The notes below the pieces were generated by a model, which had not been told where the DNA came from, made no database searches, and worked only from the letters and a program-made list of their open reading frames with translations. A DNA stretch of 64,000 bases, from NCBI RefSeq assembly GCF_056712565.1, contig NZ_JBWXXM010000004.1. One strand, given 5' to 3'. The position numbers were made by a program, and so were the translations under genes. The DNA comes from a plasmid. The first letter of the stretch is position 1; the number at the start of each line of letters is the position of its first letter. Positions 6,247-53,651 of the stretch are shown one piece after another.

Positions 6247-6699
6247 ATGTTACTTAACTGGCAGGGACGCCACTTCATGGAAATAAATCACTCACGAATA
6301 ACATCGTACGAGATTGCGGATTACATGATCCGCACTAAATCTCTTCTATCAGCGAAAGAACTCGCAGCAATTCTTGAAAAGGAATACCCGCATCTGGATG
6401 TCGATAAGCGCGATGTTTATCTGCGCTTAAAGGCTATCGCTGTGTCTAAGTATTCGTCTGTTTTGATTGATGACAGTACACGCCCACGTAGATTTCAGAT
6501 CCACTCTCTGAATCCTGAATTCTTTCGCCGCAGCCGCGCTCCGCGCCGGTTTGATGAAAAACTCCAGAACGAACTCTATATGACGCAGGACGAAAAGGAA
6601 CGCCGGGAGCACCAGCCTTGGGTGATGGCGCGTCAACTTTTCAATAAGGTGGTCCGTCAGCACCGTCATTACGGTAATGCCACATCCGCACGTATCTGA
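6247..6699 (+). CDS. late promoter activator (Lpa)-position protein, 150 aa
   Basis: Immediately upstream of pacA with a C1-operator-like site in front, as for P1 lpa; identity by synteny only. Confidence 0.45.
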   Translation: MLLNWQGRHFMEINHSRITSYEIADYMIRTKSLLSAKELAAILEKEYPHLDVDKRDVYLRLKAIAVSKYSSVLIDDSTRPRRFQIHSLNPEFFRRSRAPRRFDEKLQNELYMTQDEKERREHQPWVMARQLFNKVVRQHRHYGNATSARI

Positions 6700-6785
6700 T
6701 TGATTGCTTGCCCGTTCCGGGCCTTTTGACATGTGACTTTCGTTACCCTCGCGTCAAAAAGAGTTTTATACGAAAGGAAGCATAA

Positions 6786-7978
6786 GTGACCTGGGACGAT
6801 CACAAGAAGAATTTTGCTCGCCTGGCGCGAGATGGTGGTTACACCATCGCACAATATGCCGCCGAGTTTAATCTCAACCCAAACACCGCACGTCGTTATC
6901 TCCGTGCATTCAAAGAAGACACCGGAACAGCGGACAGCCGTAAGCCAAATAAGCCTGTCAGAAAACCACTAAAAAGCATGATCATTGATCACGCTAATGA
7001 TCAACGTGCAGGTGATCACATTGTGGCTGAAATGGCTGAAAAACAAAGAGTTAATGCTGTTGTCAGTGCCGCAGTCGAGAACGCGAAGCGCCAGAATAAG
7101 CGCATAAATGATCGTTCTGATGATCATGACGTGATCACCCGCGCCCACCGGACCTTACGTGATCGCCTGGAACGCGACACCCTGGATGATGATGGTGAAC
7201 GCTTTGAATTCGAAGCTGGCGATTACCTGATAGATAACGTTGAAGCGCGGAAGGCCGCGCGCGCTATGTTGCGTCGGTCCGGGGCTGATGTTCTGGAAAC
7301 CACTCTTCTGGAAAAGTCTCTCTCTCATCTCCTTATGCTGGAGAACGCCAGGGATACGTGTATTCGCTTGGTTCAGGAAATGCGCGATCAGCAAAAAGAC
7401 GATGATGAAGGAACTCCGCCTGAATACCGTATCGCGAGCATGCTAAACAGCTGTTCCGCGCAGATAAGCAGCCTGATCAACACCATTTACAGCATCCGGA
7501 ATAACTATCGAAAAGAAAGCCGGGAGGCGGAAAAGCACGCTTTGTCTATGGGGCAAGCTGGCATTGTAAGCTGGCATACGAACGAAAGCGTGAAAACAAC
7601 TGGTCAGTGCTGGAGGCAGCTGAATTCATCGAGGCGCATGGAGGGAAAGTACCGCCCCTGATGCTGGAGCAAATCAAAGCCGATCTGCGTGCTCCTAAGA
7701 CCAATACCGATGATGAGGAAAGGCAAACAGCCGTCGGTGGCCCTTCTCTTGAAGATCTGGACAAAGTTGCGCGAGAACGGGCCGCCAACCGCCGCGCCGA
7801 TGCCGCATTGTGGATTGAGCAGCGTAGGGAAGAAATCGCCGATATCGTTGATACAGGCGGTTATGGAGATGTTGATACTGAAGGTGTATCAAACGACCCA
7901 TGGCTGGAACAAGACCTGGACGAAGACGAGGAGGAAGACGAAGAAGTTACCCGCAAGCTATACGGGGATGATGATTAA
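6786..7978 (+). CDS. pacA: terminase small subunit PacA, reading frame broken in this sequence (ORFs 6786-7661 and 7607-7978)
   Basis: Contains the pac hexamer cluster; directly precedes pacB; total span 1193 nt (one short of a multiple of 3); the second frame reads continuously upstream to about 7580. Confidence 0.65.
6979..7137. other. pac packaging site: 4 + 3 TGATCA/G hexamers flanking the cleavage region
   Basis: TGATCA at 6979, 6986, 6998, 7013 and TGATCG/TGATCA at 7109, 7121, 7132; each contains a Dam GATC; the 4+3 layout is that of P1 pac. Confidence 0.75.
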
Positions 7979-9462
7979 TGGCCAGAAGTTGCGTAACGGA
8001 TCCACGTTGGCGCGAGCTGGTGGCGCTATATCGTTATGACTGGATTGCTGCCGCTGATGTTTTGTTCGGCAAAACACCTACCTGGCAGCAGGATCTGATT
8101 ATTGAGTCTGTGCAGGAACAGGGTAGCAAGACATCTGTTTCGTCTGGTCACGGTACCGGGAAATCAGACATGACTTCTATCATGATCATGTTGTTCATAA
8201 TCATGTATCCAGGTGCCCGTGCCATTATCGTTGCGAACAAAATTCAGCAGGTAATGACCGGTATATTCAAGTACATCAAGATAAACTGGGCTACTGCCAC
8301 CAGCCGTTTCCCATGGCTTGCTGATTATTTTGTTCTGACAGAAACCGCTTTCTATGAGATTACTGGTAAAGGTGTATGGACTGTAGTACCGAAGGGCTTT
8401 CGTCTGGGAAGTGAAGAAGCTCTCGCCGGTGAACACGCAGATCATCTTCTGTATATTATCGATGAAGCCTCCGGTGTCAGTGATAGAGCTTTCGGTATCA
8501 TCACCGGTGCTCTTACCGGACAGGATAACCGCATCTTATTGCTGTCACAGCCTACACGCCCAAGCGGCTATTTCTACGATACACACCATAAACTGGCCAA
8601 GCGTCCTGGTAACCCTGATGGCGTTTATACGGCGATCACGCTTAACAGTGAGGAATCACCGTTGGTAACGCCAGCATTTATCAAAATGAAGCTGGCGGAG
8701 TACGGCGGGCGTGATAACCCTATGTACATGATTAAGGTACGCGGCCTATTCCCTAAATCACAGGATGGCTTCCTTCTTGGACGTGATGAGGTTGAACGTG
8801 CGACGCGGCGGAAAGTCAAGATTGCCAAAGGATGGGGCTGGCTTGCATGTGTGGACGTTGCTGGTGGTACGGGACGGGATAAGTCCGTTATCAATATCAT
8901 GATGGTGTCCGGCCAGAGAAATAAACGCCGTGTAATCAACTATCGAATGCTGGAATACACAGACGTTACAGAAACGCAGCTTGCCGCCAAAATTTTCGCA
9001 GAATGTAATCCTGAGCGATTCCCAAATATCACCATAGCGATAGACGGCGATGGGCTGGGTAAAGCAACGGCGGATCTGATGTACGAGTATTATGGTATTA
9101 CCGTACAGCGTATACGCTGGGGTAAAAAGATGCATAGCCGTGAAGATAAGAGCCTGTACTTTGATAAACGTGCTTATGCCAACGTTCAAGCCGCAGAGGC
9201 CGTAAAATCTGGTCGTATGAGACTGGATAAGGGTAATGAAACTATTGAGGAAGCGTCGAAAATCCCTGTAGGGATTAACTCCGCAGGTCAATGGAAGGTG
9301 ATGAGTAAGGAGGATATGAAGAAAAAACTCAACCTGCACTCACCAGACCATTGGGATACATATTGTTTCGCTATGCTGGCGGATTATGTTCCCCAGGATG
9401 AAGTGCTTAGCGTCGAAGACGAAGCGCAGGTTGATGAAGCTCTGGCATGGCTTAATGAATAA
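7978..9462 (+). CDS. pacB: terminase large subunit PacB
   Basis: 494-aa product; follows pacA; terminase-like ATPase region. Confidence 0.85.
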
Positions 9463-11029: not shown

Positions 11030-11063
11030 TTCAGACCTAATAACTTCGTATAGCATACATTAT
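11030..11063. other. loxP site-specific recombination site
   Basis: Exact 34-bp ATAACTTCGTATAGCATACATTATACGAAGTTAT (13-bp inverted repeats plus 8-bp spacer). Confidence 0.97.
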
Positions 11064-11171
11064 ACGAAGTTATCTTAAGGGTTATTGAACATGATCAATT
11101 TACCTGTAAATCCATACAGTTCAATACCTTATCAGGTCAAATAGTGATCACTTGATCATTTGATCAAGGTT

Positions 11172-11491: not shown

Positions 11492-12523
11492 ATGTCCAAT
11501 TTACTGACCGTACACCAAAATTTGCCTGCATTACCGGTCGATGCAACGAGTGATGAGGTTCGCAAGAACCTGATGGACATGTTCAGGGATCGCCAGGCGT
11601 TTTCTGAGCATACCTGGAAAATGCTTCTGTCCGTTTGCCGATCGTGGGCGGCATGGTGCAAGTTGAATAACCGGAAATGGTTTCCCGCAGAACCTGAAGA
11701 TGTTCGCGATTATCTTCTATATCTTCAGGCGCGCGGTCTGGCAGTAAAAACTATCCAGCAACATTTGGGCCAGCTAAACATGCTTCATCGTCGGTCCGGG
11801 CTGCCACGACCAAGTGACAGTAATGCTGTTTCACTGGTCATGCGACGGATCCGAAAAGAAAACGTTGATGCCGGTGAACGTGCAAAACAGGCACTGGCGT
11901 TCGAACGCACTGATTTCGACCAGGTTCGTTCACTCATGGAAAATAGCGATCGCTGCCAGGATATACGTAATCTGGCATTTCTGGGGATTGCTTATAACAC
12001 CCTATTACGTATAGCCGAAATTGCCAGGATCAGGGTTAAAGATATCTCACGTACTGACGGTGGGAGAATGTTAATCCATATTGGCAGAACGAAAACGCTG
12101 GTTAGCACCGCAGGTGTAGAGAAGGCACTTAGCCTGGGGGTAACTAAACTGGTCGAGCGATGGATTTCTGTCTCTGGTGTGGCTGATGATCCGAATAACT
12201 ACTTGTTTTGCCGTGTCAGAAAAAATGGTGTTGCCGCGCCATCTGCCACCAGCCAGCTATCAACTCGCGCCCTGGAAGGGATTTTTGAAGCAACTCATCG
12301 ATTGATTTACGGCGCTAAGGATGACTCTGGTCAGAGATACCTGGCCTGGTCTGGACACAGTGCCCGTGTCGGAGCCGCGCGAGATATGGCCCGCGCCGGA
12401 GTTTCAATACCGGAGATCATGCAAGCTGGTGGCTGGACCAACGTAAATATTGTCATGAACTATATCCGTAACCTGGATAGTGAAACGGGGGCAATGGTGC
12501 GCCTGCTGGAAGATGGCGATTAG
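11492..12523 (+). CDS. cre: Cre tyrosine recombinase
   Basis: 343-aa product MSNLLTVHQNLPALPVDATSDEVRKNLMDMFRDRQAFSEHTWKMLLSVCRSWAAWCKL... with catalytic Tyr context NVNIVMNYIR; adjacent loxP. Confidence 0.97.
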   Translation: MSNLLTVHQNLPALPVDATSDEVRKNLMDMFRDRQAFSEHTWKMLLSVCRSWAAWCKLNNRKWFPAEPEDVRDYLLYLQARGLAVKTIQQHLGQLNMLHRRSGLPRPSDSNAVSLVMRRIRKENVDAGERAKQALAFERTDFDQVRSLMENSDRCQDIRNLAFLGIAYNTLLRIAEIARIRVKDISRTDGGRMLIHIGRTKTLVSTAGVEKALSLGVTKLVERWISVSGVADDPNNYLFCRVRKNGVAAPSATSQLSTRALEGIFEATHRLIYGAKDDSGQRYLAWSGHSARVGAARDMARAGVSIPEIMQAGGWTNVNIVMNYIRNLDSETGAMVRLLEDGD

Positions 12524-12909: not shown

Positions 12910-13016
12910 TGCACAAAAGAGCGGGTTTGTATTCCGCATCCAATCAATCAAGAAGGAGTATAGCACACAGGTACTGAAGTGAAAAAATGTGATTCGCGAT
13001 TAACAAAATATCTGCC

Positions 13017-13046
13017 ATTGCTCTAATTGATTGCTATAATTAAGCC
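13017..13046 (+). promoter_or_regulatory. overlapping pair of C1 operator-like sites upstream of ref
   Basis: attgctctaattgattg (14/17) overlapping attgctataattaagcc (11/17). Confidence 0.45.
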
Positions 13047-13100
13047 GCAGTTTTTGTCAACTACGAAGACGTTGCCATTACTTAACTCCTTGACATCATT

Positions 13101-13127
13101 GGCGGCCATTAGGCCGCCTTTTTTTTT
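13101..13127 (+). terminator. intrinsic terminator-like hairpin 6 nt upstream of the ref start codon
   Basis: ggcggcc atta ggccgcc followed by T9. Confidence 0.55.
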
Positions 13128-13132
13128 GCCAT

Positions 13133-13693
13133 ATGAAAACAATCGAACAAAAACTTGAACAGCGCCGCGAGTGGCAGAAGGCAGCCAGAGAACGAGCGAT
13201 CGCTCGGCAACGGGAAAAGTTGGCTGACCCCGCCTGGCGAGAATCGCAATATCAGAAAATGCGGGATTCTATCGACCGCCGTATCGCTAAACAGAAAGAG
13301 CGCCCACCAGCCAGCAAAACGCGGAAAAGTGCGGTAAAGATAAAATCTCGTGGCTTGAAGGGGCGAACATCGACAGCGGAGGAACGGAGCATCGCCAATG
13401 CTCTTGGCGCTCTCCCCTGCATTGCCTGCTACATGCATGGAGTAATATCTGAAGAGGTATCTCTGCACCATATCTCCGGTCGTACCGCGCCGGGTTGTCA
13501 CAAAAAGCAATTGCCCCTTTGTAGATGGCACCACCAGCATGCAGCACCGGCTGAAGTAAGAGAAAAATACCCCTGGCTGGTCCCTGTTCATGCCGATGGT
13601 GTGGTTGGAGGCAAGAAAGAATTCACCTTGCTGAACAAGTCAGAGATGGAGTTGCTGGCTGACGCCTATGAGATGGCAAACATCATGCACTAA
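13133..13693 (+). CDS. ref: Ref, HNH-family recombination enhancement endonuclease
   Basis: 186-aa product; HNH-like CYMHGVISEEVSLHHISG...CRWHH; P1 position after cre/c8. Confidence 0.85.
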   Translation: MKTIEQKLEQRREWQKAARERAIARQREKLADPAWRESQYQKMRDSIDRRIAKQKERPPASKTRKSAVKIKSRGLKGRTSTAEERSIANALGALPCIACYMHGVISEEVSLHHISGRTAPGCHKKQLPLCRWHHQHAAPAEVREKYPWLVPVHADGVVGGKKEFTLLNKSEMELLADAYEMANIMH

Positions 13694-13735
13694 TAAATAT
13701 ATTATTTTTAATCTGAAATAATTGACAACTGACAA

Positions 13736-14524
13736 GTGACTTCAGTCAGAATCATCACATGCCCGGTACGGATGGATCCCTTTTCAAATATTCCATGGAC
13801 GGCACAGTCTGAGTACCGGGCGCTACCTTCAGTTGTATTGCTAAGCCGCCGCTGGTGGCTTTTCTTTTTTGTAGGGGGCGCTATGGATAAGAAAATATGC
13901 GTTGTTTCGATGAGCGTCGGCAAACCGGCGTCAATGACTGCTGCATGGATCAACAATGAGCTAATAATGGCTGAGCGGACCAGCTACCCTGAACGCCGCC
14001 GCGATATGGAACTCCAGCTGCTGCGCGAATTGCGAGAAAAAGAGGAAAAGGGTTTTATCGTGCTGGTGGAAGAGGAAAACAGCTTTATTACTGGTCGAGT
14101 TGGCCAGCGTGTAAGGTTGCGCGATCCCTTCATGAACGGCAGGCCGGTACTAATTGAGGCAATGCAGATTTATAAGGAGCTGGAACGCCAGAAAGCAATC
14201 AAGTTACCGCGCAAGGAATCCGGCAAATACATTCTCCACCAAAGCATCTTCGATTCCGAACACGATAAAAAAGGCGATGAGTTTTTCAACATCAACTGGA
14301 GCGAAATAACGACAGAGCATGTTCTGACGTTGTTATGCTGCTTCGCAACAGAATACAACAACGTGGTAAGCGCAGACTACATCAGGGCAATGGCTGGAGA
14401 AGTTGAGGCCCGCCAAGAACCATCGTTACTAAGTCCACTGATTAACATAATTCTGGGCACCCAGATACTGGAACAAAAAAAAGTGCCGAAAGGGGTATTA
14501 ACAGGCAAGCATAATTATTTTTAA
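13736..14524 (+). CDS. hypothetical protein, mat-position (likely true start ATG 13883 behind GGGGG)
   Basis: ORF track; internal Met MDKKICVV preceded by gtagggggcgct. Confidence 0.4.
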   Translation: MTSVRIITCPVRMDPFSNIPWTAQSEYRALPSVVLLSRRWWLFFFVGGAMDKKICVVSMSVGKPASMTAAWINNELIMAERTSYPERRRDMELQLLRELREKEEKGFIVLVEEENSFITGRVGQRVRLRDPFMNGRPVLIEAMQIYKELERQKAIKLPRKESGKYILHQSIFDSEHDKKGDEFFNINWSEITTEHVLTLLCCFATEYNNVVSADYIRAMAGEVEARQEPSLLSPLINIILGTQILEQKKVPKGVLTGKHNYF

Positions 14525-14617
14525 CAATTACATACAGTAATTTTGTGGTTACATTCTCCATTGATTTTCTAACCGCTTTATCATTAGATGTAACAGCATG
14601 TAAATCATTTAAAATGG

Positions 14618-15754
14618 ATGAAAGCAATGGGGAATGAAGTTTATCAAAGTCAAAAATGCAAGTTGAAATATTCAAAATCTCAAATTGATAGGGCTGCTCA
14701 ATTGATAAGGCACGGGTGTAGTGACGAAGAAAGGCAGCAATCTATTGAAATGATACAAAATTTCCGTGAGCTGCATCTTTATCCATTAATGCTCATGAAA
14801 AATCATTTAGCAAGAGCAGCTGCTAAGGTTGACAAGGACAAAAAGATTCTCGTTGCAAGAAGACTTAAGCGACTTTCTACCATAATAGATAAACTAGAGC
14901 GTCCTAGTCTTGATGGAGGCAGAACTAGCAATGCAATTAAATTAACACGGATGCAGGACGTTGGCGGATGTAGGGCCATTGTCAGAAACTTAGACCAGTT
15001 GATACAGCTAAAGGAACGTCTTTTAAAAAGCAAATCTGTTCATAGGATTGTTAAAGAGTATGATTATCTTACTCCCAAAGACAGCGGCTATAGTGGAATC
15101 CACCTTGCATACAGTTGCTTCGATCAGAAAGAGGATCAATATCCGTGGCGAAAAACAAAGATTGAGATACAGTTAAGAACTCAATTGCAGCATGCTTGGG
15201 CTACCAGCCTTGAAATAATTGATACCCTTGAAGGTATCAAGCTGAAAACTTCAAGTGAAGGGCATCCAGAATGGAGACGATTTTTCTATCTAGCCGGATG
15301 TCTTGTAGCGCACGACGAAAAAGCCTGCACTCTTGATGAGCTAGTTGTATCTCAGTATGAAGGCGAGCTTAAAGAGCTGGAACGGACTTTATCTGTACGG
15401 AGGAAACTAAGCACATACACCATCGCCTTAAATTTAACTTCTGACGCGAATTTGATTAAGAAGTTGCCAAAAAATCATAAGGGGCATTACTTAGTAACAA
15501 TGAGAAATGCAGAAAACAAGCCCAATACAAAAAACAAAAAAATGTTCCTAGTGTCTGTTCGCGCATTTAAAACAAAAGAAGCAGATGAAGCCCTTGAGGC
15601 CTTAAATAAAGACGATTCTAATCCTAATGTATTGATATCTGTTCTCGTTGCTACAGATAACATTAAGTCACTAAAAAAAGCCTACCCCAACTATTTTGGC
15701 TCAACAAACCAGTTTACAAAATTCTTAGATAAGCATCTTCGTAACGAAGGATAG
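14618..15754 (+). CDS. RelA/SpoT-domain nucleotidyltransferase (toxSAS-like), candidate fused toxin-antitoxin of the CapRel type
   Basis: 378-aa product with RLKRLSTIIDKLER, DVGGCRAIV (DxxGxR), DYLTPKDSGYSGIH and EIQLRTQLQHAWA (ExQxRT..HxW) motifs; no neighbouring antitoxin ORF; AT-rich flanks; Cys-poor Lys/Asn-rich C-terminal third. Confidence 0.7.
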   Translation: MKAMGNEVYQSQKCKLKYSKSQIDRAAQLIRHGCSDEERQQSIEMIQNFRELHLYPLMLMKNHLARAAAKVDKDKKILVARRLKRLSTIIDKLERPSLDGGRTSNAIKLTRMQDVGGCRAIVRNLDQLIQLKERLLKSKSVHRIVKEYDYLTPKDSGYSGIHLAYSCFDQKEDQYPWRKTKIEIQLRTQLQHAWATSLEIIDTLEGIKLKTSSEGHPEWRRFFYLAGCLVAHDEKACTLDELVVSQYEGELKELERTLSVRRKLSTYTIALNLTSDANLIKKLPKNHKGHYLVTMRNAENKPNTKNKKMFLVSVRAFKTKEADEALEALNKDDSNPNVLISVLVATDNIKSLKKAYPNYFGSTNQFTKFLDKHLRNEG

Positions 15755-15760
15755 TTGCTT

Positions 15761-15790
15761 AATTTTGCCCGGTAATTCCGGGCAAAATTG
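15761..15790. terminator. bidirectional intrinsic terminator between the toxSAS gene and the lxc-position gene
   Basis: aa ttttgcccgg taatt ccgggcaaaa tt (10-bp stem) between convergent stops. Confidence 0.6.
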
Positions 15791-16039
15791 TCAATCTGCA
15801 TTCAGGAGCAATGCGTTATCTATGATGATCTGCTCCCATTCTTCGAATGCCCGATCGCGGACGCCCTGGGGAACACTGTTAGTTTTGAAATCGACCACCG
15901 TCCGCCATTTCCCGTCCGGGCGGTACATGCGCAGAGCTTTACTTCCCCCTTCCCTGCGCACCTCAACGTTATGCTTATCAGCAAACTCTTGTAATGCTCG
16001 TAGCGTCCCATGCTTTACTGTGTAGTATCGCTTTTTCAA
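15791..16039 (-). CDS. small protein (82 aa), lxc-position (modulator of C1 repression in P1)
   Basis: 82-aa ORF immediately downstream of the ulx-position gene and darB on the same strand; identity by synteny only. Confidence 0.4.
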   Translation of the reverse strand: MKKRYYTVKHGTLRALQEFADKHNVEVRREGGSKALRMYRPDGKWRTVVDFKTNSVPQGVRDRAFEEWEQIIIDNALLLNAD

Positions 16040-16476
16040 GTTTTCTCTCCAGCCTGTGCCAAGGCTTCAACTTCCAAATCGTAAGACTCAAACTCATAGT
16101 CCTGGTCGTCAACTTCTTCAGGCACTGGCAGTAAATGCCAGGCTGAGTATATCTGACCATTATCAAAACGCTCCTGGCTGTAGAGCGTCGCGGCTATGAG
16201 TGTTAGCGCCGGGCGGTCATAACGGTAAATTTTGCGAACGTCACGGTCAACGAGACGACCGAAATTACCATAACCGCGCTCCAGTAATAATTTTTTAATT
16301 TCCGGCCAGTATGGACCATAGCTGCGGTACAGGCGGGGATTTTTCAGTAATCGCCCGCGTAGCCCTGACAGGAAGAAATCAACGTATTCGTCTTCTGTCT
16401 TTCCTAACAACGCTGTACGGAGTACCGCCTCAAGATATGTTTTATTCGGTTTTATTGTATCAGATAGTGTGGCCAT
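16036..16476 (-). CDS. hypothetical protein (146 aa), ulx-position
   Basis: ORF track; overlaps the next gene start by 4 nt (coupled). Confidence 0.4.
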   Translation of the reverse strand: MATLSDTIKPNKTYLEAVLRTALLGKTEDEYVDFFLSGLRGRLLKNPRLYRSYGPYWPEIKKLLLERGYGNFGRLVDRDVRKIYRYDRPALTLIAATLYSQERFDNGQIYSAWHLLPVPEEVDDQDYEFESYDLEVEALAQAGEKT

Positions 16477-16509
16477 ATTATGCGACGCCCGGCGAACCGG
16501 GCGCTCCTG

Positions 16510-19500: not shown

Positions 19501-22500
19501 GTCCATATCCCTGATTATTGAGAAGATCGGACGGGCTTTCTCGTGCTCAATCACGCCGTCTTCATTGACCGAGGTCGTTACGCCATTGTTGGCTTTGGCC
19601 GCCGCTTCCGCCTGCTGACGCAATTCTTCATACGCCGCCAGTTGTTCTTCAGTAAGTGGTGCATCCTGCTGGTGTTCGTCCAGCTCCGGGATCTCCACGG
19701 TATCCTTAACGTCTTCCGCCGTTTTAAGCGTTACCCAGCGATGGAATATACCGCGCAGCGCATCAAGGTTTTCAAAGCCCACCAGCGCCATTTTTTCTTC
19801 AACTTCACCGCTAATTTTCTGTACCGTTTCCAGCCTGGTCTTGCCGAAGAATTTAACGAAGTCATCAGGACCGTAGATCCCCATGTTCTGCCAGTATTCC
19901 TTCGGCAGAACATGAGAAAGCATGTTGTATGCATCGATCGGGGTGTTAACGACTGGCGTTGCAGTCAGGAGAACCGGCCCGCGCCCGCCATTCTTTTTCA
20001 TCAGGTACGCGTTTTTAATTGCCATATCTCGCGCCGATTGCGCCACCGCGCTGGTGGGCAGATAGGCCAGTTGTGACGCTTCGCGACCATTTTTATAGCT
20101 ATTGCGGTAGTTGTGACCTTCGTCGGCGATCACACTATCGAAGCCCATATCCTCAAAGTACGGATACTTCTCTGCTTTTTCGGTGCCGGTATCTGAATAC
20201 TCCGACAATACCCGGCGACGCGCGGCCTCTTTGCGGTGGGAGTCGGAGTCCATTGCGCTGGCTACGCGCCCGGCTGCAACGAAGTCATAAAGCATATCCT
20301 GTGCATGCTCATCTACGGTGTCATCACGTAGCGGAATGCGGGCGTATTGTTCTTTGGTAAACACGACTGCACGGTAATTTGAGTGCGGGATCGCGTTCAT
20401 CCGCGCCGTGATAGTGGCTTCATCTGCCAGTTTTAGGGCATCGCGCATAACTGGAGTGCCATCAGTACCAAGAACAGGTTTACCGTTCTCATCGAGCACC
20501 GGCACCTGGCGAATCTGATCGCCATCCATCAGCACATCAAGACCGACGAACAGGTAGTTACTGAATGCCTCTTCACTCAGGAATTCTTTTGCTTCGTAAT
20601 ACCAGTTTTCCAGCACTGATTTAGGCACTACATACGCAGTACGGGTGGAGCGACCGTTCTCATAGTTGAACGCCTCAAGCGCCAGCGCGGTCGTAGTTTT
20701 ACCCAGCCCGGTGCCGAAGCCCAGGATGCCGCGCCCATCTTCGGACAGTCGGCGCACTTCGCTATTCTGGTAATCAAATGGCTGGCGCTTACCGCTTAAT
20801 CCCTTCAACCCAAGCGGATCGCCAGAGTGTTCATACGGGATATTGCTATTGAACACATCGTTGTATTTGGCAACCAGTTCATCGTAGCGATCGTGCGTCT
20901 TGATCCACTTATTGAACTGGTCCTCAAGCAGTGCCATCTGCTCGCGGTAGCCGTTCGCCGTCGCGCTATCTTTGCCACCGATACGCGCACCATTGAGATA
21001 CTTTTCCAGCTGTGCCGGGAACCCGGTCGCGTTTTCACCTGATTTACGGTCCCACTCGTAGCGGATCTCGCCTGTTTCTTTATCCTTGCGCTGGACGACA
21101 CCGTATCGGTGCCCGACGAACAGACCATCACCACCGTGATAGGTGTCAGAAACCATTTCGTCGCCTTCCAGCTGCACTGACTGCACATAGCGAAGATCCG
21201 GATAGCCGTTTTCCTGCAAAAATTCCAGAATGACGGAACGGTCGAACCAACGGCTATTGAGCTTAAAGCGGATATTCTCTGCTGGCGTCTTGATGCGCTT
21301 CTCTTCGATCGCTGCCAGCTGATTAAGGACGTTGTTCTTTACTGGACCGTCGGGGAGTGTGGCAAGGAATTCCTGTTTTGGTGCCACTATCTCGTTAATG
21401 TCGCCGCTGGTGGCGCGGGCGAACGGAACAATCCCGCCATACGGTGAAACCGCAATGCCAGGGGTGCTGGCCAATAAATTAAGCAACTCGTCATCACTGG
21501 CTGGCAGTTCGCCGGTAAACGCAAGGCGGAAATCATCGAGCTGGATTGGATCGCGAGTGAGATCACTGTAGAGATAACGCAGGGTGTCCTGATAGCTGGT
21601 GGAGTCATAACTGGCGCTGGAATCATGCGTAACCAGTTTTCCTGTCAGCTCGTCAGAAATAGTGCCATCCAGCTTAATTGCACCACGGAAAGCAAACCAG
21701 GCGCGCGCACCGCTCCCCGATAATTTCGCTATCGGACCGCGACCGGGGTTACCAAAACGGTCAATCTCTGCCTGCAAACGGGATACCAGAGAAAGGCGCT
21801 GCTGTTCGATTTGTTCAGCACTATGCCCGGCGGCCTTCATGTCCTGATATTCAATTAACATCCGGCCAATCATCGCCCCGCGATACAAGCGTTCACGGTA
21901 TTTTTCAGGCTGGCTGTTAATCCAGTCCACCAGCTGCACCATATCGTCGCTGATTGATGTGGTGTACTTATCGCGGACATTTGCCATCTGGGTAAATGTC
22001 ATGCCGAGACGGCCTTCTGTTGTAGTCAGGTTACGCTGAAGAGCCTCCCAGCTATCCGCGCCATAACTGGCAGCATCGATCTTAAGTTCCTTCCCTGCAT
22101 CAGCTTCAATCCAGCGACCACCAGCATATTTTTGCCATACGCCATTAATCAGGCGCATTTCCCCTTCACCAACAACGTCTGCGGTCGGTGACGGTTCAGC
22201 CATATCGAGCAAAGACCAGTCGATACGGCTTTCGAAACGATGAATCAGCTTCGCTTTAAGAGCCTGGTTATCAATCTGACCGTCGGCACGAACCTCAATA
22301 CGCCCCTGGAAGCCCTTTTCCTGGGTGCCATGAACAAACCGGCGGCCATCCTTTTCAAACCACTTGCCAGAAATAAACGTTGACCAAAGCACATTTGCCG
22401 ATTCGAGAGTGCTTTCATCCACCAGGGGGATTTTCTCAGCCATCTCTGCCGGATGTTTGCGCATCAGCACCACATCTACGACCGTACTGGTCCCGTTAGC

Positions 22501-23277
22501 GTCAAAAGTACCGGTAGGCAAGCGGTGAGCGCCAAGAAATTCAGCTTTACGGGATAGGCGCAGGCGTAACCGCTTCATGTTTGAACCTGAAACAATGGAC
22601 GGCGGCACAATCACGCACATGAATCCGCCTGGCTTTATCTTGTCCAGCATGCGGAGCATGAAGTAAGAACCCATGTCCGTTTCTTCTGCGTAAGGCTTAT
22701 CGATGTTGCGTGTGTTATCACGACCACCGAACGGAACGTTACCCACAACATGGTCGAATGAATCGTTAGGCGTGCTTACAGCCAGCTGTTCGAACGGGGA
22801 AATCTGTACGCTGTCTTCCGGGTGTAACAGCTGGTTTATACGACCGGAAACACTGCTGATCTCAGTCGCAGTCATCACCGTACCAACCGGTTTTGTCTCA
22901 TTAAAAACGCCGGTGCCCGCCGATGGTTCCAGAGTGTTACCTACGTCCGCGCCGTAGAGCTTCATGATCTCCCAGACACCTTCAGCGATCGGCTTTGGTG
23001 TGTAATATTCGGAGACGGACCCGCCAATGCCGCCTTCACCGGTGTACCCAGCCAGGATCTGGCGCTGTTCATCTGTCAGTGTCGCGCCGTCCACCAGCGA
23101 ATTAAGCAAATCTATCGCCTTCTGATTCGCCTCCCGGCGCAGTCGGTCATAGCTTTTGCCTTCCACCTTTTCCACGCCGTATTTAATCGGCGCTCGGTGA
23201 GATGTTATTGCCCTAATGTATTTCAATATTTCGCTGACACTTGAACAGCGAAACACCCCCATAGATAGCTTGTTCAT
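16510..23277 (-). CDS. darB: DarB, antirestriction protein packaged in virions (N6-adenine methyltransferase plus DExH helicase domains)
   Basis: 2255-aa product (length of P1 DarB); MTase motif-IV-like HVVGNVPFGG; Walker A GFGTGLGKTTTALA; DExH VIADEGHNYRN. Confidence 0.9.
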   Translation of the reverse strand: MNKLSMGVFRCSSVSEILKYIRAITSHRAPIKYGVEKVEGKSYDRLRREANQKAIDLLNSLVDGATLTDEQRQILAGYTGEGGIGGSVSEYYTPKPIAEGVWEIMKLYGADVGNTLEPSAGTGVFNETKPVGTVMTATEISSVSGRINQLLHPEDSVQISPFEQLAVSTPNDSFDHVVGNVPFGGRDNTRNIDKPYAEETDMGSYFMLRMLDKIKPGGFMCVIVPPSIVSGSNMKRLRLRLSRKAEFLGAHRLPTGTFDANGTSTVVDVVLMRKHPAEMAEKIPLVDESTLESANVLWSTFISGKWFEKDGRRFVHGTQEKGFQGRIEVRADGQIDNQALKAKLIHRFESRIDWSLLDMAEPSPTADVVGEGEMRLINGVWQKYAGGRWIEADAGKELKIDAASYGADSWEALQRNLTTTEGRLGMTFTQMANVRDKYTTSISDDMVQLVDWINSQPEKYRERLYRGAMIGRMLIEYQDMKAAGHSAEQIEQQRLSLVSRLQAEIDRFGNPGRGPIAKLSGSGARAWFAFRGAIKLDGTISDELTGKLVTHDSSASYDSTSYQDTLRYLYSDLTRDPIQLDDFRLAFTGELPASDDELLNLLASTPGIAVSPYGGIVPFARATSGDINEIVAPKQEFLATLPDGPVKNNVLNQLAAIEEKRIKTPAENIRFKLNSRWFDRSVILEFLQENGYPDLRYVQSVQLEGDEMVSDTYHGGDGLFVGHRYGVVQRKDKETGEIRYEWDRKSGENATGFPAQLEKYLNGARIGGKDSATANGYREQMALLEDQFNKWIKTHDRYDELVAKYNDVFNSNIPYEHSGDPLGLKGLSGKRQPFDYQNSEVRRLSEDGRGILGFGTGLGKTTTALALEAFNYENGRSTRTAYVVPKSVLENWYYEAKEFLSEEAFSNYLFVGLDVLMDGDQIRQVPVLDENGKPVLGTDGTPVMRDALKLADEATITARMNAIPHSNYRAVVFTKEQYARIPLRDDTVDEHAQDMLYDFVAAGRVASAMDSDSHRKEAARRRVLSEYSDTGTEKAEKYPYFEDMGFDSVIADEGHNYRNSYKNGREASQLAYLPTSAVAQSARDMAIKNAYLMKKNGGRGPVLLTATPVVNTPIDAYNMLSHVLPKEYWQNMGIYGPDDFVKFFGKTRLETVQKISGEVEEKMALVGFENLDALRGIFHRWVTLKTAEDVKDTVEIPELDEHQQDAPLTEEQLAAYEELRQQAEAAAKANNGVTTSVNEDGVIEHEKARPIFSIIRDMDRVCTDMDLYYRRITYRFLPEYADAVQQLADSLPKQATSEDDDSDDSITQQSQYSLIDKGEFIQLQVPEAFEQEVNKRLAKFGIDEQTVTHPVTPKYAKLIATLKEFFPEGKQIIFTDEKTQHQKLKRIICNALNLEPSKVGILNAQTVAEAGKTGKKLKAVKPPKELPDEPTDAQIAKYNEQMALYDAYIAQQNEMSLGGLEKIAADFQEGRTPIIICNKKAEVGINLHRGTTDIHHLTLPWTPASIAQRNGRGARVGSNRASVRVHYYCGKGSFDEYRLKTLKRKAGWISDILRSDKSEMENADANDMIEMQMYTAKDDGERLAMMQVQMDKAKAAQRARQKEQATIDLQNYIKAQHAAGEDVEVLTAELERSKAELEKTTADVAKFKQAVMAKAADNADWKARWGSVHHTDRMLLAQYRASLKNAIQRKANISQAISRYEKLLNRTQKAATDIKRLRPLVEDAINKGILDVDPDLVNHASEFLVIGDRSWRVGQYYDCAGDIVRIKSLDFDSQRADVEIIFTFKGTKSGNWDVKTLDKQVDVTPDEDAVMQKISGGVSIAGINDIISCDDFYRFQQRGMIKITDSYGVQTTESGYSIDFVGTYTDPLKHAVYPDRRDDALKSSIAKWVLGMMSEGNNRQIRSAETFLVELFGSNYGDVIASYGDTLSPEAIQEKIADAIARMPEKTSQGATRNGDSELEVTNAIFGTNEFRGSDYEITTAQFGTIGIYSNKAEIKQAMDAASARIVAEREANLNHAVAALTQSWVTAIREAATTGKITPAIADVVNDGSKFMDAYQMDAVKLPSAYGQLSYRMTYNLVSMFSDLAILGLVDLNEVTPELLSMRKNHVEILQRINTVLAGRTDEEKQADADRINLALGNITEEEIAARNEKQEELSSTQGDATSIAQSLGLNYRVSTADLKMMYAPKFAAGEVFGLQEASGMKGVLFRAKDAIKAKFGARWLPAKAKNSDFPGNWWIIETKHNVADVLAVIQQYA

Positions 23278-23343
23278 TGGTAATCCTTAACAAGTGACTA
23301 GTGTTAAATTCCGTTCAAACACGATGTGAATTATTCTAATTAA

Positions 23344-26074
<2,731 letters not shown>

Positions 26075-35873: not shown

Positions 35874-36000
35874 TTTTTACCTATACAACAGTAAGTTGAA
35901 CAACATTTGAGAACGGTATGCACTTTGTGATTTCCACACACACTGGTTTTGTTAATTAAAACCTGTAGCTTGCAATAAATAACGATAGTGGGCAGAAAAT

Positions 36001-36185
36001 ATGCTAATAGGCTATGTACGCATATAGACAAATGAACAAAACACAGCTATGCAGTGAAAAGCACTTGAAAGCGCAGGATGTGAGCTAATTTTTGCGAATA
36101 AGGCGAGCAGCAAAAAAGCTGGGCACCCTGGGTTAAAAAAGGTTCTGCGTATGCTTTCCAGAGGTGATACCCTAGTCTCGGACTA
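36001..36185 (+). pseudogene. degenerate 5' fragment of a Cin/Gin/Hin-family serine invertase gene, inverted relative to the adjacent invertase
   Basis: Translation MLIGYVRI*TNEQNTAMQ*KALESAGCELIFANKASSKKAGHPGLKKVLRMLSRGDTLVSD* aligns to invertase residues 1-61 with two in-frame stops. Confidence 0.6.
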
Positions 36186-36212
36186 GGGACAACATTTCGA
36201 GAACAGTTTTCA

Positions 36213-36641
36213 TTAGCGGTCAGCAGGCGCTAGATACATCGAATTGATGTGCCGCGCGATAAATGTACCTATTCTATCAAGATAAATTACACCGACGCGG
36301 CAAGCACCCATGACATGAAAAAAGAAACGCCCCATGGGTGTTGATGTGTCAATACTGTCTGTCAGACTACGGAAATTAACACCTTTTTCCCGCAACTCCT
36401 CTATAAGCGTGATAAGGTGTTTCATACTTCTGCCAAGCCTATCCAGCTTCCAGACAACCAGCGTATCTCCTTCTGATAACGTTCTGAGCAGCTTTTTCAA
36501 GCCTGGTCTGGCTGACTTTGTTCCGCTTATTTTATCTTCAAAAATCAGTTCACATCCTGCGCAGTTCAGTGCATTTCTTTGTAAATCTGTGTTTTGGTCA
36601 TTTGTTGACACACGAATGTAGCCAATTTGCATGAAAAACAA
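36213..36641 (-). CDS. cin: Cin/Min-family serine DNA invertase, C-terminally truncated (homology ends after about residue 113 at about nt 36301)
   Basis: MQIGYIRVSTNDQNTDLQRNALNCAGCELIFEDKISGTKSARPGLKKLLRTLSEGDTLVVWKLDRLGRSMKHLITLIEELREKGVNFRSLTDSIDTSTPMGRFFFHVMGA matches the Gin/Hin/Cin catalytic domain; the next 29 residues are unrelated and the HTH domain is absent. Confidence 0.75.
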   Translation of the reverse strand: MFFMQIGYIRVSTNDQNTDLQRNALNCAGCELIFEDKISGTKSARPGLKKLLRTLSEGDTLVVWKLDRLGRSMKHLITLIEELREKGVNFRSLTDSIDTSTPMGRFFFHVMGACRVGVIYLDRIGTFIARHINSMYLAPADR

Positions 36642-36692
36642 CCTCTTTGTTTAGTTAAAAATACATCGTTGGTATAGGTAGGGATTAAGACT

Positions 36693-36717
36693 AAAACGTT
36701 GGTTTGGGGGAAGGCTC
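36693..36717 (+). other. invertase crossover site xs-1 (cix/mix-like), starts cassette tfc-1
   Basis: aaaacgTTggtttgggggaaggctc; core AACGTTGGTTT resembles the Hin/Gin/Cin family core AAACC-NN-GGTTT; 62 bp from the divergent invertase start. Confidence 0.55.
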
Positions 36718-37171
36718 GGCACTGCCCGTTGGTGTACCTGTTCCATGGCCCTCAGCCACACCACCAACGGGGTGGCTGAAATGCAATGGTGCAGCATTTT
36801 CTTCTGAAAAGTACCCAAATCTGGCAAAGGTTTACCCTACTAATAAATTGCCGGATCTACGGGGCGAATTTATTCGCGGCTGGGATGACGGGCGGGGGAT
36901 TGACTCTGGCCGTAATTTATTATCTGCACAGAATGATGCAATTCAGAATATTGTTGGTTCTTTCGGGCGTACTCAGCTTTTTAGAGATGTACTTAGTTCA
37001 GGGCCATTTAGTCAACATGGTCAAGTATTATCTACAGGCCTAAAGGAAACGGAAATTATTGAGGGTTATGGCTCTTATAACTGGACATTCGACGCCTCTC
37101 GCTCAGTTCGTACAGCATCTGAAACCCGCCCCCGTAATATTGCATTTAATTACATCGTAAGGGCGGCATAA
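36704..37171 (+). CDS. silent tail-fibre C-terminal cassette tfc-1 (TTG start, no promoter)
   Basis: Begins (M/L)GEGSALPVGVPVPWPSATPPTGWLKCNGAAFSSEKYPNLAKVYPTNKLPDLRGEFIRGWDDGRG, same as the junction of S, then a unique 80-aa core, ends ETRPRNIAFNYIVRAA. Confidence 0.65.
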   Translation: MGEGSALPVGVPVPWPSATPPTGWLKCNGAAFSSEKYPNLAKVYPTNKLPDLRGEFIRGWDDGRGIDSGRNLLSAQNDAIQNIVGSFGRTQLFRDVLSSGPFSQHGQVLSTGLKETEIIEGYGSYNWTFDASRSVRTASETRPRNIAFNYIVRAA

Positions 37172-37195
37172 AAACGTTGGTTTGGGGGAAGGCTC
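37171..37195 (+). other. crossover site xs-2
   Basis: aaaacgttggtttgggggaaggctc directly after the tfc-1 stop. Confidence 0.55.
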
Positions 37196-37658
37196 AGCAT
37201 TGCCCGTTGGCGTGCCCGTTCCGTGGCCCTTAGAAACACCGCCAACGGGGTGGCTGAAATGTAACGGAGCAGCATTTTCTTCTGAAATGTATCCCAAACT
37301 GGCAAAGGCCTACCCCACCAATAAATTACCGGATTTACGGGGAGAATTTATTCGCGGCTGGGATGATGGGCGCGGGGTGGATGCGGGACGTGCTTTATTG
37401 AGCATTCAGACAGGAATGCTGGAAAAGCACCGACATATTGTTGTAGCCAATGATGGTTACGACACAAAAGATGAATGGGAGCTGGCGACAATTTTCAAAA
37501 AAACATACACACAAGGACGGGGGCTTGATGCCTCAAATACAGGAGGGAATTTGATTCCATCACCGACACTTCATTCTCGAGGGAGTATTGGTAATACTGG
37601 CGGGAGTGAAACCCGTCCACGAAATATCGCATTTAATTACATCGTAAGGGCGGCATAA
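37182..37658 (+). CDS. silent tail-fibre C-terminal cassette tfc-2
   Basis: Same conserved head (PLETPP/SSEMYPKLAKAYPT allele) and tail ETRPRNIAFNYIVRAA, distinct core. Confidence 0.65.
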   Translation: MGEGSALPVGVPVPWPLETPPTGWLKCNGAAFSSEMYPKLAKAYPTNKLPDLRGEFIRGWDDGRGVDAGRALLSIQTGMLEKHRHIVVANDGYDTKDEWELATIFKKTYTQGRGLDASNTGGNLIPSPTLHSRGSIGNTGGSETRPRNIAFNYIVRAA

Positions 37659-37682
37659 AAACGTTGGTTTGGGGGAAGGCTC
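37658..37682 (+). other. crossover site xs-3
   Basis: aaaacgttggtttgggggaaggctc. Confidence 0.55.
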
Positions 37683-38133
37683 TGCACTGCCTGTTGGTGT
37701 GCCCGTTCCGTGGCCCTTAGAAACACCACCAACGGGCTGGCTAAAATGCAATGGTGCAGCATTTTCTTCTGAAATGTATCCCAAACTGGCAAAGGCCTAC
37801 CCCACCAATAAATTACCGGATTTACGCGGTGAGTTTATCCGTGGTTGGGATGATGGGCGAGGTGTGGATGCGGGAAGGGTCATCTTAAGCATACAGGGGT
37901 GGTTACAGGAAGTCATTATCATAATATTCGGTCATGGGACGCGTGGATAACACGGTATTGGTGCCATTAATTGACATGAGGGGGGGATAGTCTGTTGTCG
38001 ACAGATAACGCCGTCAGGCATTTTCAGCGATTAATGGTAAATTTCACCAGTCAACTCTGTAGGTGATGGTATAAATTTTGTTGCTGTCAGGCCGCGAAAT
38101 ATCGCATTTAATTACATCGTAAGGGCGGCATAA
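37669..38133 (+). pseudogene. degenerate duplicate of cassette tfc-4 (frameshifted cassette tfc-3)
   Basis: Near-identical to 38144-38602 at DNA level but with indels (ggttacagg vs ggttaacagg); ORF stops after 93 codons although the terminal RPRNIAFNYIVRAA coding block is present at 38090-38133. Confidence 0.55.
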
Positions 38134-38157
38134 AAACGTTGGTTTGGGGGAAGGCTC
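38133..38157 (+). other. crossover site xs-4
   Basis: aaaacgttggtttgggggaaggctc. Confidence 0.55.
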
Positions 38158-38602
38158 TGCACTGCCTGTTGGTGTGCCCGTTCCGTGGCCCTTAGAAACA
38201 CCACCAACGGGCTGGCTAAAATGCAATGGTGCAGCATTTTCTTCTGAAATGTATCCCAAACTGGCAAAGGCCTACCCCACCAATAAATTACCGGATTTAC
38301 GCGGTGAGTTTATCCGTGGTTGGGATGATGGGCGAGGTGTGGATGCGGGAAGGGTCATCTTAAGCATACAGGGGTGGTTAACAGGAAGTCATTATCATAA
38401 TATTCGGTCATGGGACGCGTGGGATAACACGGTATTGGTGCCAAATGACAGAGGGGGGGATAGTCTGTTGTCGACAGATAACGCCGTCCGGCAAGGAGCG
38501 ATTAATGGTAAATTTACCAGTCAATACAGAACGGAGTTATCTGGGGGGAATGAAACCCGCCCACGTAACATTGCCTTCAATTATATTGTGAGAGCAGCAT
38601 AA
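38144..38602 (+). CDS. silent tail-fibre C-terminal cassette tfc-4, coupled to a tail fibre assembly gene
   Basis: 152-aa cassette; stop overlaps the ATG of the following tfa gene (taATGg). Confidence 0.65.
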   Translation: MGEGSALPVGVPVPWPLETPPTGWLKCNGAAFSSEMYPKLAKAYPTNKLPDLRGEFIRGWDDGRGVDAGRVILSIQGWLTGSHYHNIRSWDAWDNTVLVPNDRGGDSLLSTDNAVRQGAINGKFTSQYRTELSGGNETRPRNIAFNYIVRAA

Positions 38603-39213
38603 TGGATAATGCGATATTAAATAGCGAACTTATAGCCATACAGGCAGGAAACATTATCGTTTATAACTATGATGGTGGTAATCGGGAATATATTTCTGCA
38701 TCAACTGAATATCTTGCTGTTGGCGTTGGTATTCCGGCAAATTCTTGTTTGGATGCTCCAGGCTCACATAAAGCAGGTTATGCGATTCTCCGTTCAGAGG
38801 ATTTAAGTTCATGGGAGTATGTGCCAGATCATCGTGGCGAAACTGTCTATAGCATTGACACTGGGAATCCCGAAGAAATCACGGTGTTGGGTGACTATCC
38901 GGAAAATACAACCACTATCGCCCCGCTAACACCATACGACAAATGGGATGGAGAGAAATGGGTGGTTGATACTGAGGCTCAACATAGTGCAGCTGTAGAG
39001 GCAGCAGAAACAAAACGTCAGTCATTGATTGATACTGCGATGGATTCCATTAGTCTGATTCAGTTGAAATTACGGGCTGGACGGAAGTTGACGCAGGCAG
39101 AAACCACGCAGCTTAACTCCGTGCTAGATTATATAGACGAGCTGAACGCGATGGATTTAACCACGGCACCAGATCTCAACTGGCCTGAAAAACAACTTTC
39201 TACAGCCAGTTGA
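38602..39213 (+). CDS. tail fibre assembly chaperone (Tfa / U-like)
   Basis: 203-aa product; Tfa-like C-terminal region DYIDELNAMD...WPE; translationally coupled to tfc-4, as U follows Sv in Mu/P1. Confidence 0.65.
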   Translation: MDNAILNSELIAIQAGNIIVYNYDGGNREYISASTEYLAVGVGIPANSCLDAPGSHKAGYAILRSEDLSSWEYVPDHRGETVYSIDTGNPEEITVLGDYPENTTTIAPLTPYDKWDGEKWVVDTEAQHSAAVEAAETKRQSLIDTAMDSISLIQLKLRAGRKLTQAETTQLNSVLDYIDELNAMDLTTAPDLNWPEKQLSTAS

Positions 39214-39218
39214 TATAA

Positions 39219-39716
39219 TTAATCCGCCCTCACAATATAATTAAATGCAATATTACGAGGGCGGGTTTCTAAGCCAGCAGTACCTAAATTAGCTACGGAC
39301 TGTTTATATGTTTTAAAAGTTCCATAATTAGGGGCTGGCAATCCTGCATCGCTTGTGTTCCCCCATCTGATAACTCCCGTATTACCACTAGTAGCCCATG
39401 CCTCGTCAAAGTAGAAATTAATTGAGCGGTCAGTTGCTACGGTTGATTTTGACGGTAATCCGTGAGCATGATCCTCCGTTGCATATCCTTGCTCGCTTAA
39501 AATAGAGCGACCAGAGTCAATCCCTCGCCCATCATCCCAGCCACGGATAAACTCACCGCGTAAATCAGGTAATTTTAACGTTGGGTAAACCTTTGCCAGA
39601 TTTGGGTACTTTTCAGAAGAAAATGCTGCACCATTGCATTTCAGCCACCCCGTTGGCGGTGTGGCTGAGGGCCATGGAATAGGTACACCAACGGGCAGCG
39701 CCGAGCCTTCCCCTAA
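39219..39716 (-). CDS. silent tail-fibre C-terminal cassette tfc-5 (no start codon: TTA at the crossover site)
   Basis: Open frame LGEGSALPVGVPIPWPSATPP...ETRPRNIAFNYIVRAD; missing from the ORF track because it begins TTA-GGG instead of TTG-GGG. Confidence 0.55.
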   Translation of the reverse strand, partial: LGEGSALPVGVPIPWPSATPPTGWLKCNGAAFSSEKYPNLAKVYPTLKLPDLRGEFIRGWDDGRGIDSGRSILSEQGYATEDHAHGLPSKSTVATDRSINFYFDEAWATSGNTGVIRWGNTSDAGLPAPNYGTFKTYKQSVANLGTAGLETRPRNIAFNYIVRAD

Positions 39717-39727
39717 ACCAACGTTTT
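39703..39727 (-). other. crossover site xs-5 (TTA variant, like the site in S)
   Basis: Plus strand gagccttcccctaaaccaacgtttt. Confidence 0.55.
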
Positions 39728-40155
39728 CATGCCGCCCTTACGATATAATTAAACGCAATGTTACGAGGACGAATGGTTACATAATTAACCCCATCACCTC
39801 GTGAAGGCCCTGCAAATGAAAAACGGGAAAATCCTGGTTGGTTAGAAACAATTTGGTCATAGTTATTGATTGAATGACCAGACCCAATGTCGAAATTACC
39901 TCCGTAATGAGAAAAACTTGTACCATCCTGCCCTGAAAGCAGGGTACGTCCCGCATCAATCCCGCGCCCATCATCCCAGCCACGGATAAATTCACCGCGT
40001 AAATCCGGTAATTTATTGGTGGGGTAGGCTTTTGCCAGTTTGGGATACATTTCAGAAGAAAATGCTGCACCATTGCATTTTAGCCAGCCCGTTGGTGGTG
40101 TTTCTAAGGGCCACGGAACGGGCACACCAACAGGCAATGCTGAGCCTTCCCCCAA
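39727..40155 (-). CDS. silent tail-fibre C-terminal cassette tfc-6
   Basis: 142-aa; conserved head and tail, unique core. Confidence 0.65.
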   Translation of the reverse strand: MGEGSALPVGVPVPWPLETPPTGWLKCNGAAFSSEMYPKLAKAYPTNKLPDLRGEFIRGWDDGRGIDAGRTLLSGQDGTSFSHYGGNFDIGSGHSINNYDQIVSNQPGFSRFSFAGPSRGDGVNYVTIRPRNIAFNYIVRAA

Positions 40156-51914: not shown

Positions 51915-52043
51915 TTACCCGATTCTACGAGTTGTCATTTGTTACCGGTCAGTCTACACATTTCAGATGCTGCGTTAAAAAACCCAAGTACTTCAAGTAG
52001 CACATCGTCATCAACACCCAGCCCCAAGATACGGTGATAAAAT

Positions 52044-53078: not shown

Positions 53079-53152
53079 ATTATTCCATTTCTATAATAGA
53101 ATATTACGCAACCAATGTTTTATTGATTGCGTTAATCTTTAACACAGAAAGA

Positions 53153-53629
53153 TCATTTGCCTCGTTTAATACATCCATCCATTTTGGCTTGTTGATACAA
53201 CTTACTTAGCCCAGAAAGAGGGAATGTAGCAATTTTTTCATTATCAACATAAGCATCAATCATATTAGCATTTGAATCTGCTGCATCTTGCCAAAAGGCA
53301 TACCACCAAGAATCTCCAACCATTGATCCAAGATTGCTAAAAGGATATTGATCACCATCTATAGTTAATACTATTTTATTCTTGTCAGCATTATACTCTT
53401 TTTTATTATTCGACGAACTTAGCAACAAGCCTAAACTACCTGCACTATCTGGTGAACCATACATGAATCCCATATCACATAAAAAACTTATCTTATCACC
53501 ATTATGATTATGGATTGTATATTCTCTCCCCCCTCTCTCTTCAATTACATTCCATTGTAGAGGATCAATTTTTGCAAATGTTCCTGCTGAAACTAACGAT
53601 ACAAATAATAAAAACCATCTCATATTCAT
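53153..53629 (-). CDS. secreted/periplasmic protein with signal peptide (sim-position cluster)
   Basis: N-terminus MNMRWFLLFVSLVSAGTFAKIDP (n-h-c signal peptide with AxA-like cleavage context). Confidence 0.5.
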   Translation of the reverse strand: MNMRWFLLFVSLVSAGTFAKIDPLQWNVIEERGGREYTIHNHNGDKISFLCDMGFMYGSPDSAGSLGLLLSSSNNKKEYNADKNKIVLTIDGDQYPFSNLGSMVGDSWWYAFWQDAADSNANMIDAYVDNEKIATFPLSGLSKLYQQAKMDGCIKRGK

Positions 53630-53651
53630 TCTTTTCGCTTCTTATCTGTAA

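Follow-up and report, generated by a model that had tools for sequence, protein, structure and literature searches.

The segment at 6979-7137 is very probably the pac site of a P1-like (Punavirus, SJ46-type) phage-plasmid, i.e. the point at which headful packaging starts on replicated concatemers. It lies in a stretch of 64,000 nucleotides of plasmid DNA (contig NZ_JBWXXM010000004.1), the whole of which is referred to here as the window. What is observed directly is its layout, its identity to P1, its conservation and a density of hexamers that exceeds both chance and coding constraint. The pac site itself is already known and belongs to textbook P1 biology, reportedly described by Sternberg and Coulby between 1987 and 1990 and by Skorupski et al. 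in 1992 and 1994, with the annotation in AF234172/NC_005856; what is present here is a new copy in a common phage-plasmid. Its presence confirms the window as a P1-type phage-plasmid with a headful packaging origin. The additions beyond the known P1 pac are modest, namely a frameshifted pacA and a two-part Dam-site architecture in very distant PacA homologues.

Layout of the pac site and comparison with P1

The site is composed of two groups of plus-strand hexamers. The left recognition element, HEX4 (6979-7018), contains four TGATCA in 40 bp, at 6979-6984, 6986-6991, 6998-7003 and 7013-7018. The right recognition element, HEX3 (7109-7137), contains three hexamers in 29 bp, TGATCG at 7109-7114 and TGATCA at 7121-7126 and 7132-7137. 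The spacer from 7018 to 7109 is exactly 90 bp, and the 4 + 3 arrangement spans 159 bp, as against ~161-162 bp for a P1-type site. All seven hexamers (7/7) have the GATC core recognised by Dam, and together they occupy nt 194-352 of the ORF starting at 6786, in the 5' third of the pacA coding sequence. The initial annotation had placed four TGATCA within 40 bp and three TGATCG/TGATCA within 29 bp, 90 bp apart, and both groups are exactly where it put them. It overlooked an eighth hexamer, a plus-strand TGATCG at 7160-7165, which begins 23 bp past 7137, the end that it had given. This eighth hexamer is just outside the 161-162 bp minimal pac and is also found in P1.

The P1 pac is a 161-bp segment of pacA in which seven TGATCA/G Dam hexamers, grouped as HEX4 and HEX3, are accompanied by an IHF site and cleavage takes place centrally (PMC10028697). 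The likeness to this layout, which had been claimed from the hexamers, is borne out by alignment: positions 6940-7200 (261 bp) align to P1 (AF234172) without a single gap, and the seven hexamers and the IHF site are identical. The comparison with the P1 pac sequence, suggested as a check, gives nine substitutions inside 6979-7137 (5.7%), all of them between the hexamers. Because the alignment is free of gaps, the features in the GenBank feature table of AF234172 could be projected directly onto the window. The P1 protein_bind feature at 90784-90796 falls on the plus strand at 7041-7053, between the hexamer groups, where the putative IHF site AAACAAAGAGTTA is identical to that of P1 in all 13 bases. 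It has one mismatch to the consensus WATCAANNNNTTR; matches of equal quality number 78 in the window as against 71 expected, so that the sequence is not distinctive alone and the IHF assignment rests on homology to P1. The 'primary pac cleavage site' of P1 (90804-90813) projects to 7061-7070; its staggered termini would fall at 7061/62 and 7067/68 (lower strand) and at 7063/64 and 7069/70 (upper strand), approximately midway between the hexamer groups. The difference from P1 nearest to this inferred cut zone is a C to T change at 7058, 3-4 bp from the closest projected terminus.

The window thus shares with P1 the place of pac in pacA (nt 194-352), the seven hexamers and their spacings, the IHF site and the 90-bp spacer, as well as the flanking lpa, LPpac, pacB, c1, loxP and cre. 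It differs in the nine point substitutions and in a -1 frameshift at 7567, which is absent from P1 pacA. Over positions 6500-7500, where the match covers lpa and pacA, identity is 99.9% with Salmonella phage SJ46 and 96-97% with P1 and P7; the pac site of SJ46 (Punavirus SJ46) is identical to that of the window base for base.

Upstream of the site are lpa (6247-6699, plus strand; Pfam PF25716 BPP1_LPA, E 2.3e-57; lpa in P1 and SJ46), the activator that switches on the late promoter LPpac, and LPpac itself (6731-6749, plus strand), projected from P1 regulatory features 90475-90493 and identical to P1 in sequence. The plus-strand pacA (6786-7978), which contains pac, encodes the recognition subunit of the pacase (PHROG 1711, terminase) and is disrupted. 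It is followed by pacB (7978-9462, plus strand), an intact gene of 494 aa for the large, terminase-type subunit (PHROG_2, terminase large subunit, E 2.5e-40; the pacase B subunit of P1). Further on are an ORF for c1 on the minus strand, an exact 34-bp match to loxP at 11040-11073, 4 kb downstream of pac, and an ORF for cre at 11492-12523. This context, from lpa to cre, is 96-99.9% identical to P1, P7 and SJ46. The first 261 aa of PacA share 97% identity with P1, and a weak N-terminal helix-turn-helix is given by profile match at residues 10-48. The first 25 kb of the window are 98.8% identical to plasmid pS159-2, and the rest also aligns, with 36-42 kb being more divergent and rearranged. The same module is carried by hundreds of E. 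coli and Salmonella plasmids; with the gene neighbourhood, this marks the window, on sequence grounds, as a P1-like (Punavirus) phage-plasmid closest to Salmonella phage SJ46.

The region between loxP and cra/cre (11092-11166) has hexamers of its own, with four TGATCA, three of them at 8-bp spacing (11145, 11153 and 11161). P1 has three annotated Dam sites in this cre-upstream region and the window four, TGACCA in P1 being TGATCA at 11145-11150.

Taken over from P1 by orthology, binding, bending, methylation dependence and cut positions at the window's site would be as follows. PacA with PacB (the pacase) would bind both HEX4, the left hexamer group, and HEX3, the right one, and IHF, with HU, would bend the 90-bp spacer at 7041-7053. 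The cuts made by the pacase would be staggered across 7061-7070, roughly one turn of the helix. Cutting would need methylation of the GATC adenine on both strands, with freshly replicated, hemimethylated pac being bound and left uncut. Since cutting would require methylation of both strands, the starts of packaging series would be limited, and Dam methylation would set their timing and frequency. One end would then enter the prohead, followed by successive headfuls of ~112% of genome length (PMC10999674). For the known P1 pac, the initial annotation had stated that Dam methylation controls cleavage, and this agrees with the published work, in which the P1 pacase binds hemimethylated pac and cleavage requires further methylation; it is for P1 only that this dependence is known (PMC10028697).

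A close relative has a Dam-family methylase gene, dmt, whose position falls outside the window, past its end. Host Dam would be available in E. coli in any case. A literature search for the direction of packaging relative to lox returned nothing citable. Packaging presumably runs towards pacB, c1 and loxP, and if it does run towards loxP, the first headful would carry loxP in its terminal redundancy.

Headful phages such as P22 and SPP1 have a packaging site inside or beside the gene of the recognition subunit (TerS). TerS subunits have an N-terminal helix-turn-helix, and processive headfuls follow from one cut. The P1-type site differs from those of P22 and SPP1 in being two-part, in being composed of Dam-methylatable hexamers, in its need for IHF/HU and in its methylation-gated cleavage, and PacA (397 aa) far exceeds a typical TerS in size.

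Chance, coding constraint and conservation of the hexamers

There are 63 plus-strand TGATCR in the 64-kb window. When 63 sites were placed uniformly in 200,000 trials, the fullest 187-bp stretch held 6 (frequency 3e-5), and 7 or 8 were never reached. The window-wide maximum of GATC or of TGATCR per 40, 160 or 190 bp is the pac locus. The clusters of GATC at 54759 and 57671 lack the hexamer character and appear unremarkable.

An excess of this kind could also arise from the protein, the hexamers being a by-product of a low-complexity PacA linker in which the dipeptides Asp-His, Asp-Gln and Met-Ile/Val-Ile recur, and having no function as DNA. All eight GATC (8/8) do arise from D-H, D-Q, D-R, M-I or V-I codon pairs, and the peptide alone raises the GATC expected in the pac stretch to 4.8, versus a background of ~0.8, owing to its many Asp-His, Asp-Gln, Met-Ile and Val-Ile pairs. 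Synonymous resampling, with the peptide kept the same and local codon usage applied, nevertheless gave a mean of 2.5 TGATCR and reached 8 in only 6e-5 of 100,000 trials. Variation among close relatives (53 sequences, 38 distinct, from IMG/VR and GenBank) also stands against the protein as the source: third codon positions are invariant inside the hexamers (0/14 variable) while 14/39 outside them vary (p=0.011). Across all positions of pac, 3/42 within hexamers are variable versus 29/117 of the others (Fisher p=0.014), and the fourth hexamer accounts for all three variable hexamer positions, each of them altered in one or two of the 53 sequences. With the hexamers set aside, variability in the pac-coding stretch is 25%, compared with 12% in the remainder of the gene's first 450 nt. 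As judged from these comparisons, conservation is higher in the hexamers than in the surrounding coding sequence.

The same is seen at greater distance in Cronobacter phage JK004, whose PacA is 70% identical overall and essentially unalignable at residues 60-112. TGATCR are present in the JK004 gene at offsets 201, 213, 228, 324, 336 and 347, i.e. six hexamers at the exact P1 offsets, and hexamers likewise stay in place in Serratia, Pantoea and others despite the unalignable peptide. The eighth TGATCG (offset 375) is present in 51 of the 57 loci tallied, and the JK004/D6-like lineage has a counterpart at offset 390. In P1, synonymous recoding that destroyed the hexamers cut phage-genome packaging and left the titre ~9-fold lower (PMC10028697). 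Resampling, third codon positions and distant relatives effectively refute a protein-driven origin of the hexamers, and the by-product reading is left with next to no probability. The PacA protein seems to be adapted to the DNA signal and not the DNA to the protein.

Alternatively, the GATC cluster could be a Dam/SeqA-dependent regulatory or replication element, similar to the cre promoters or to an origin-type cluster, and unrelated to packaging. Such an arrangement has a parallel on the same element, where TGATCA at 11092, 11145, 11153 and 11161 lie upstream of cre and three matching positions are annotated Dam sites in the cre regulatory region of P1. The pac cluster is, however, inside a coding region, no promoter is annotated here in P1, and the experimentally mapped packaging termini of P1 are between the two hexamer groups. 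A regulatory or replicative role in place of packaging is therefore very improbable, and a pac site is the preferred explanation of the cluster.

The frameshift in pacA and self-packaging

Compared with P1, with SJ46 and with 13 E. coli records that are otherwise identical over 1195 bp, pacA of the window is without one T of a TT doublet at 7567. SJ46 and the 13 E. coli plasmids have an intact PacA of 397 aa, whereas that of the window is not intact: the ORF at 6786-7661 gives 291 aa, of which ~261 are native, and the C-terminal 136 codons are out of frame. The initial annotation took the site as the anchor for both pacA and a P1-type headful packaging origin. The first part stands, as the site does identify pacA; with pacA frameshifted, however, an intact site is no proof of self-packaging. 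The pac site looks functional in cis from its sequence, but the element may be unable to package itself. If the deletion at 7567 is real, the cis site would be intact, and cutting and packaging of the element's own DNA would need PacA supplied in trans by a helper.

Whether pac here is an intact relic in a packaging-defective plasmid-prophage, working only if a co-resident P1-like helper supplies PacA, is evenly balanced; this is a refinement of the main explanation and does not contradict it. The gene is essential for packaging: knocking it out leaves only empty proheads and tails (PMC9024508). In an audit of indels against the closest plasmid, pS159-2, over ~58 kb, the deletion at 7567 was the only frame-breaking indel inside an annotated CDS, the remaining indels being intergenic, multiples of three, or compensating within a divergent segment, which argues that the assembly is not generally error-prone. 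The deletion is also not at a Dam or Dcm motif, unlike the CCWGG frameshifts of vB_EcoM-673R5 and vB_EcoM-813R1. On the other hand, a single 1-bp deletion private to one record could be an error of sequencing or assembly, and because the rest of the packaging module is intact, any inactivation of pacA would be very recent. The chances that the deletion at 7567 is a real mutation are about even.

The pacA genes of vB_EcoM-673R5 (ON470615.2) and vB_EcoM-813R1 (ON470617.2) are themselves split by 1-bp deletions at CCAGG/CCTGG (CCWGG, Dcm). These look like nanopore basecalling errors at methylated sites, and the 'Pac1/Pac2' annotation of the two phages is probably an artefact.

The combination of an intact pac with a possibly broken pacA bears on the element's ability to spread as a virus, as opposed to spreading only by vertical inheritance or with the aid of a helper, which matters because P1-like plasmids often carry resistance genes.

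Distant PacA homologues and other features of the window

Two divergent PacA sequences served as tblastn queries for gathering distant pacA genes; JK004 pacA gave no match in a megablast search of plasmids. Nine lineages were obtained, from Serratia, Pantoea (two), Xenorhabdus, Leclercia, Enterobacter kobei, Citrobacter portucalensis, C. freundii and a metagenomic virus, with PacA proteins 25-36% identical to P1 and mostly <55% identical to one another. A left GATC cluster followed 84-158 bp later by a smaller right cluster is present in every one of these distant lineages. The left clusters contain 2-7 GATC, often at an exact 12-bp spacing, as in Pantoea agglomerans, which has six TGATCA spaced by exactly 12 bp.

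Enrichment was measured in a zone set from P1 coordinates (gene nt 144-431). This zone holds 57 of the 94 GATC of the nine distant genes, versus 22.3 expected (binomial p=2.6e-14), and is enriched at least 2.1-fold in each lineage. Six lineages are individually significant at p<0.02, and Leclercia, Xenorhabdus and C. portucalensis give a weak signal (p = 0.07-0.2 individually). The zone test replaced a per-locus 'densest 110-bp window' test, which was underpowered and gave a strong signal in P. agglomerans and C. freundii and none in C. portucalensis. An Acinetobacter venetianus record, near-identical to a Pantoea PSNIH1 plasmid, was left out as non-independent.

Distant P1-related phage-plasmids (Cronobacter JK004, D6-like Salmonella and others) thus resemble P1 in having two GATC clusters in the variable, linker-coding part of pacA. 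The candidate clusters lie just after the conserved N-terminal helix-turn-helix region, with the denser one on the left, as in P1; they differ from P1 in the number, spacing and flanking bases of the sites. No statement of a wider conservation of GATC clusters in pacA was found in the searchable literature, the coverage of which is incomplete. The two-part Dam-hexamer cluster could be the ancestral packaging signal of an order-wide family of P1-related phage-plasmids (with PacA down to 25% identity), with methylation-gated initiation as a family trait and linker and site co-evolving, and the element in the window could be pacA-null with a working pac, mobilisable by a helper; taken together, this reading has an equal chance of being right or wrong. 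Persistence of the hexamer clusters in distant PacA homologues offers a simple sequence rule for predicting pac sites in Enterobacterales phage-plasmids. Predicted pac sites could in turn point to transduction start points and serve for phagemid cassettes in uncharacterised phage-plasmids.

The gene before pacA in most of the distant relatives is not lpa but a parM/stbA partition gene transcribed divergently, so that their packaging module is in a different genomic context from that of P1. The pacA regions of CP060164.1 (Acinetobacter venetianus plasmid) and CP009882.1 (Pantoea sp. PSNIH1 pPSP-26e) are near-identical and both records belong to rep_cluster_1392, which suggests a misassigned host, contamination or a very recent transfer. 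A frameshift is present in the Acinetobacter venetianus record, CP060164.1.

Elsewhere in the window, GATC is scarce in two segments. The first 2.58 kb (1-2580) contain zero GATC, as against ~7.5 expected per 2 kb, and positions 36000-40000 contain only 4, as against ~15 expected. The low counts in these segments suggest GATC avoidance or a different origin. The second segment belongs to the region at 36-42 kb, whose match to the pS159-2 tail-fibre segment is confined to divergent pieces in a rearranged order. An AT-rich segment at 52001-54000 (GC 0.345, vs ~0.48 elsewhere) is near the immunity (c4/icd/ant) region, as placed by collinearity with pS159-2. In P1, the EcoP1 res/mod genes are downstream of cre, ref and mat. 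The counterpart of ~13000-16500 in the pS159-2 record (22427-25048) encodes a RelA/SpoT-domain protein and hypothetical proteins, and this region of the close relative may be swapped defence cargo.
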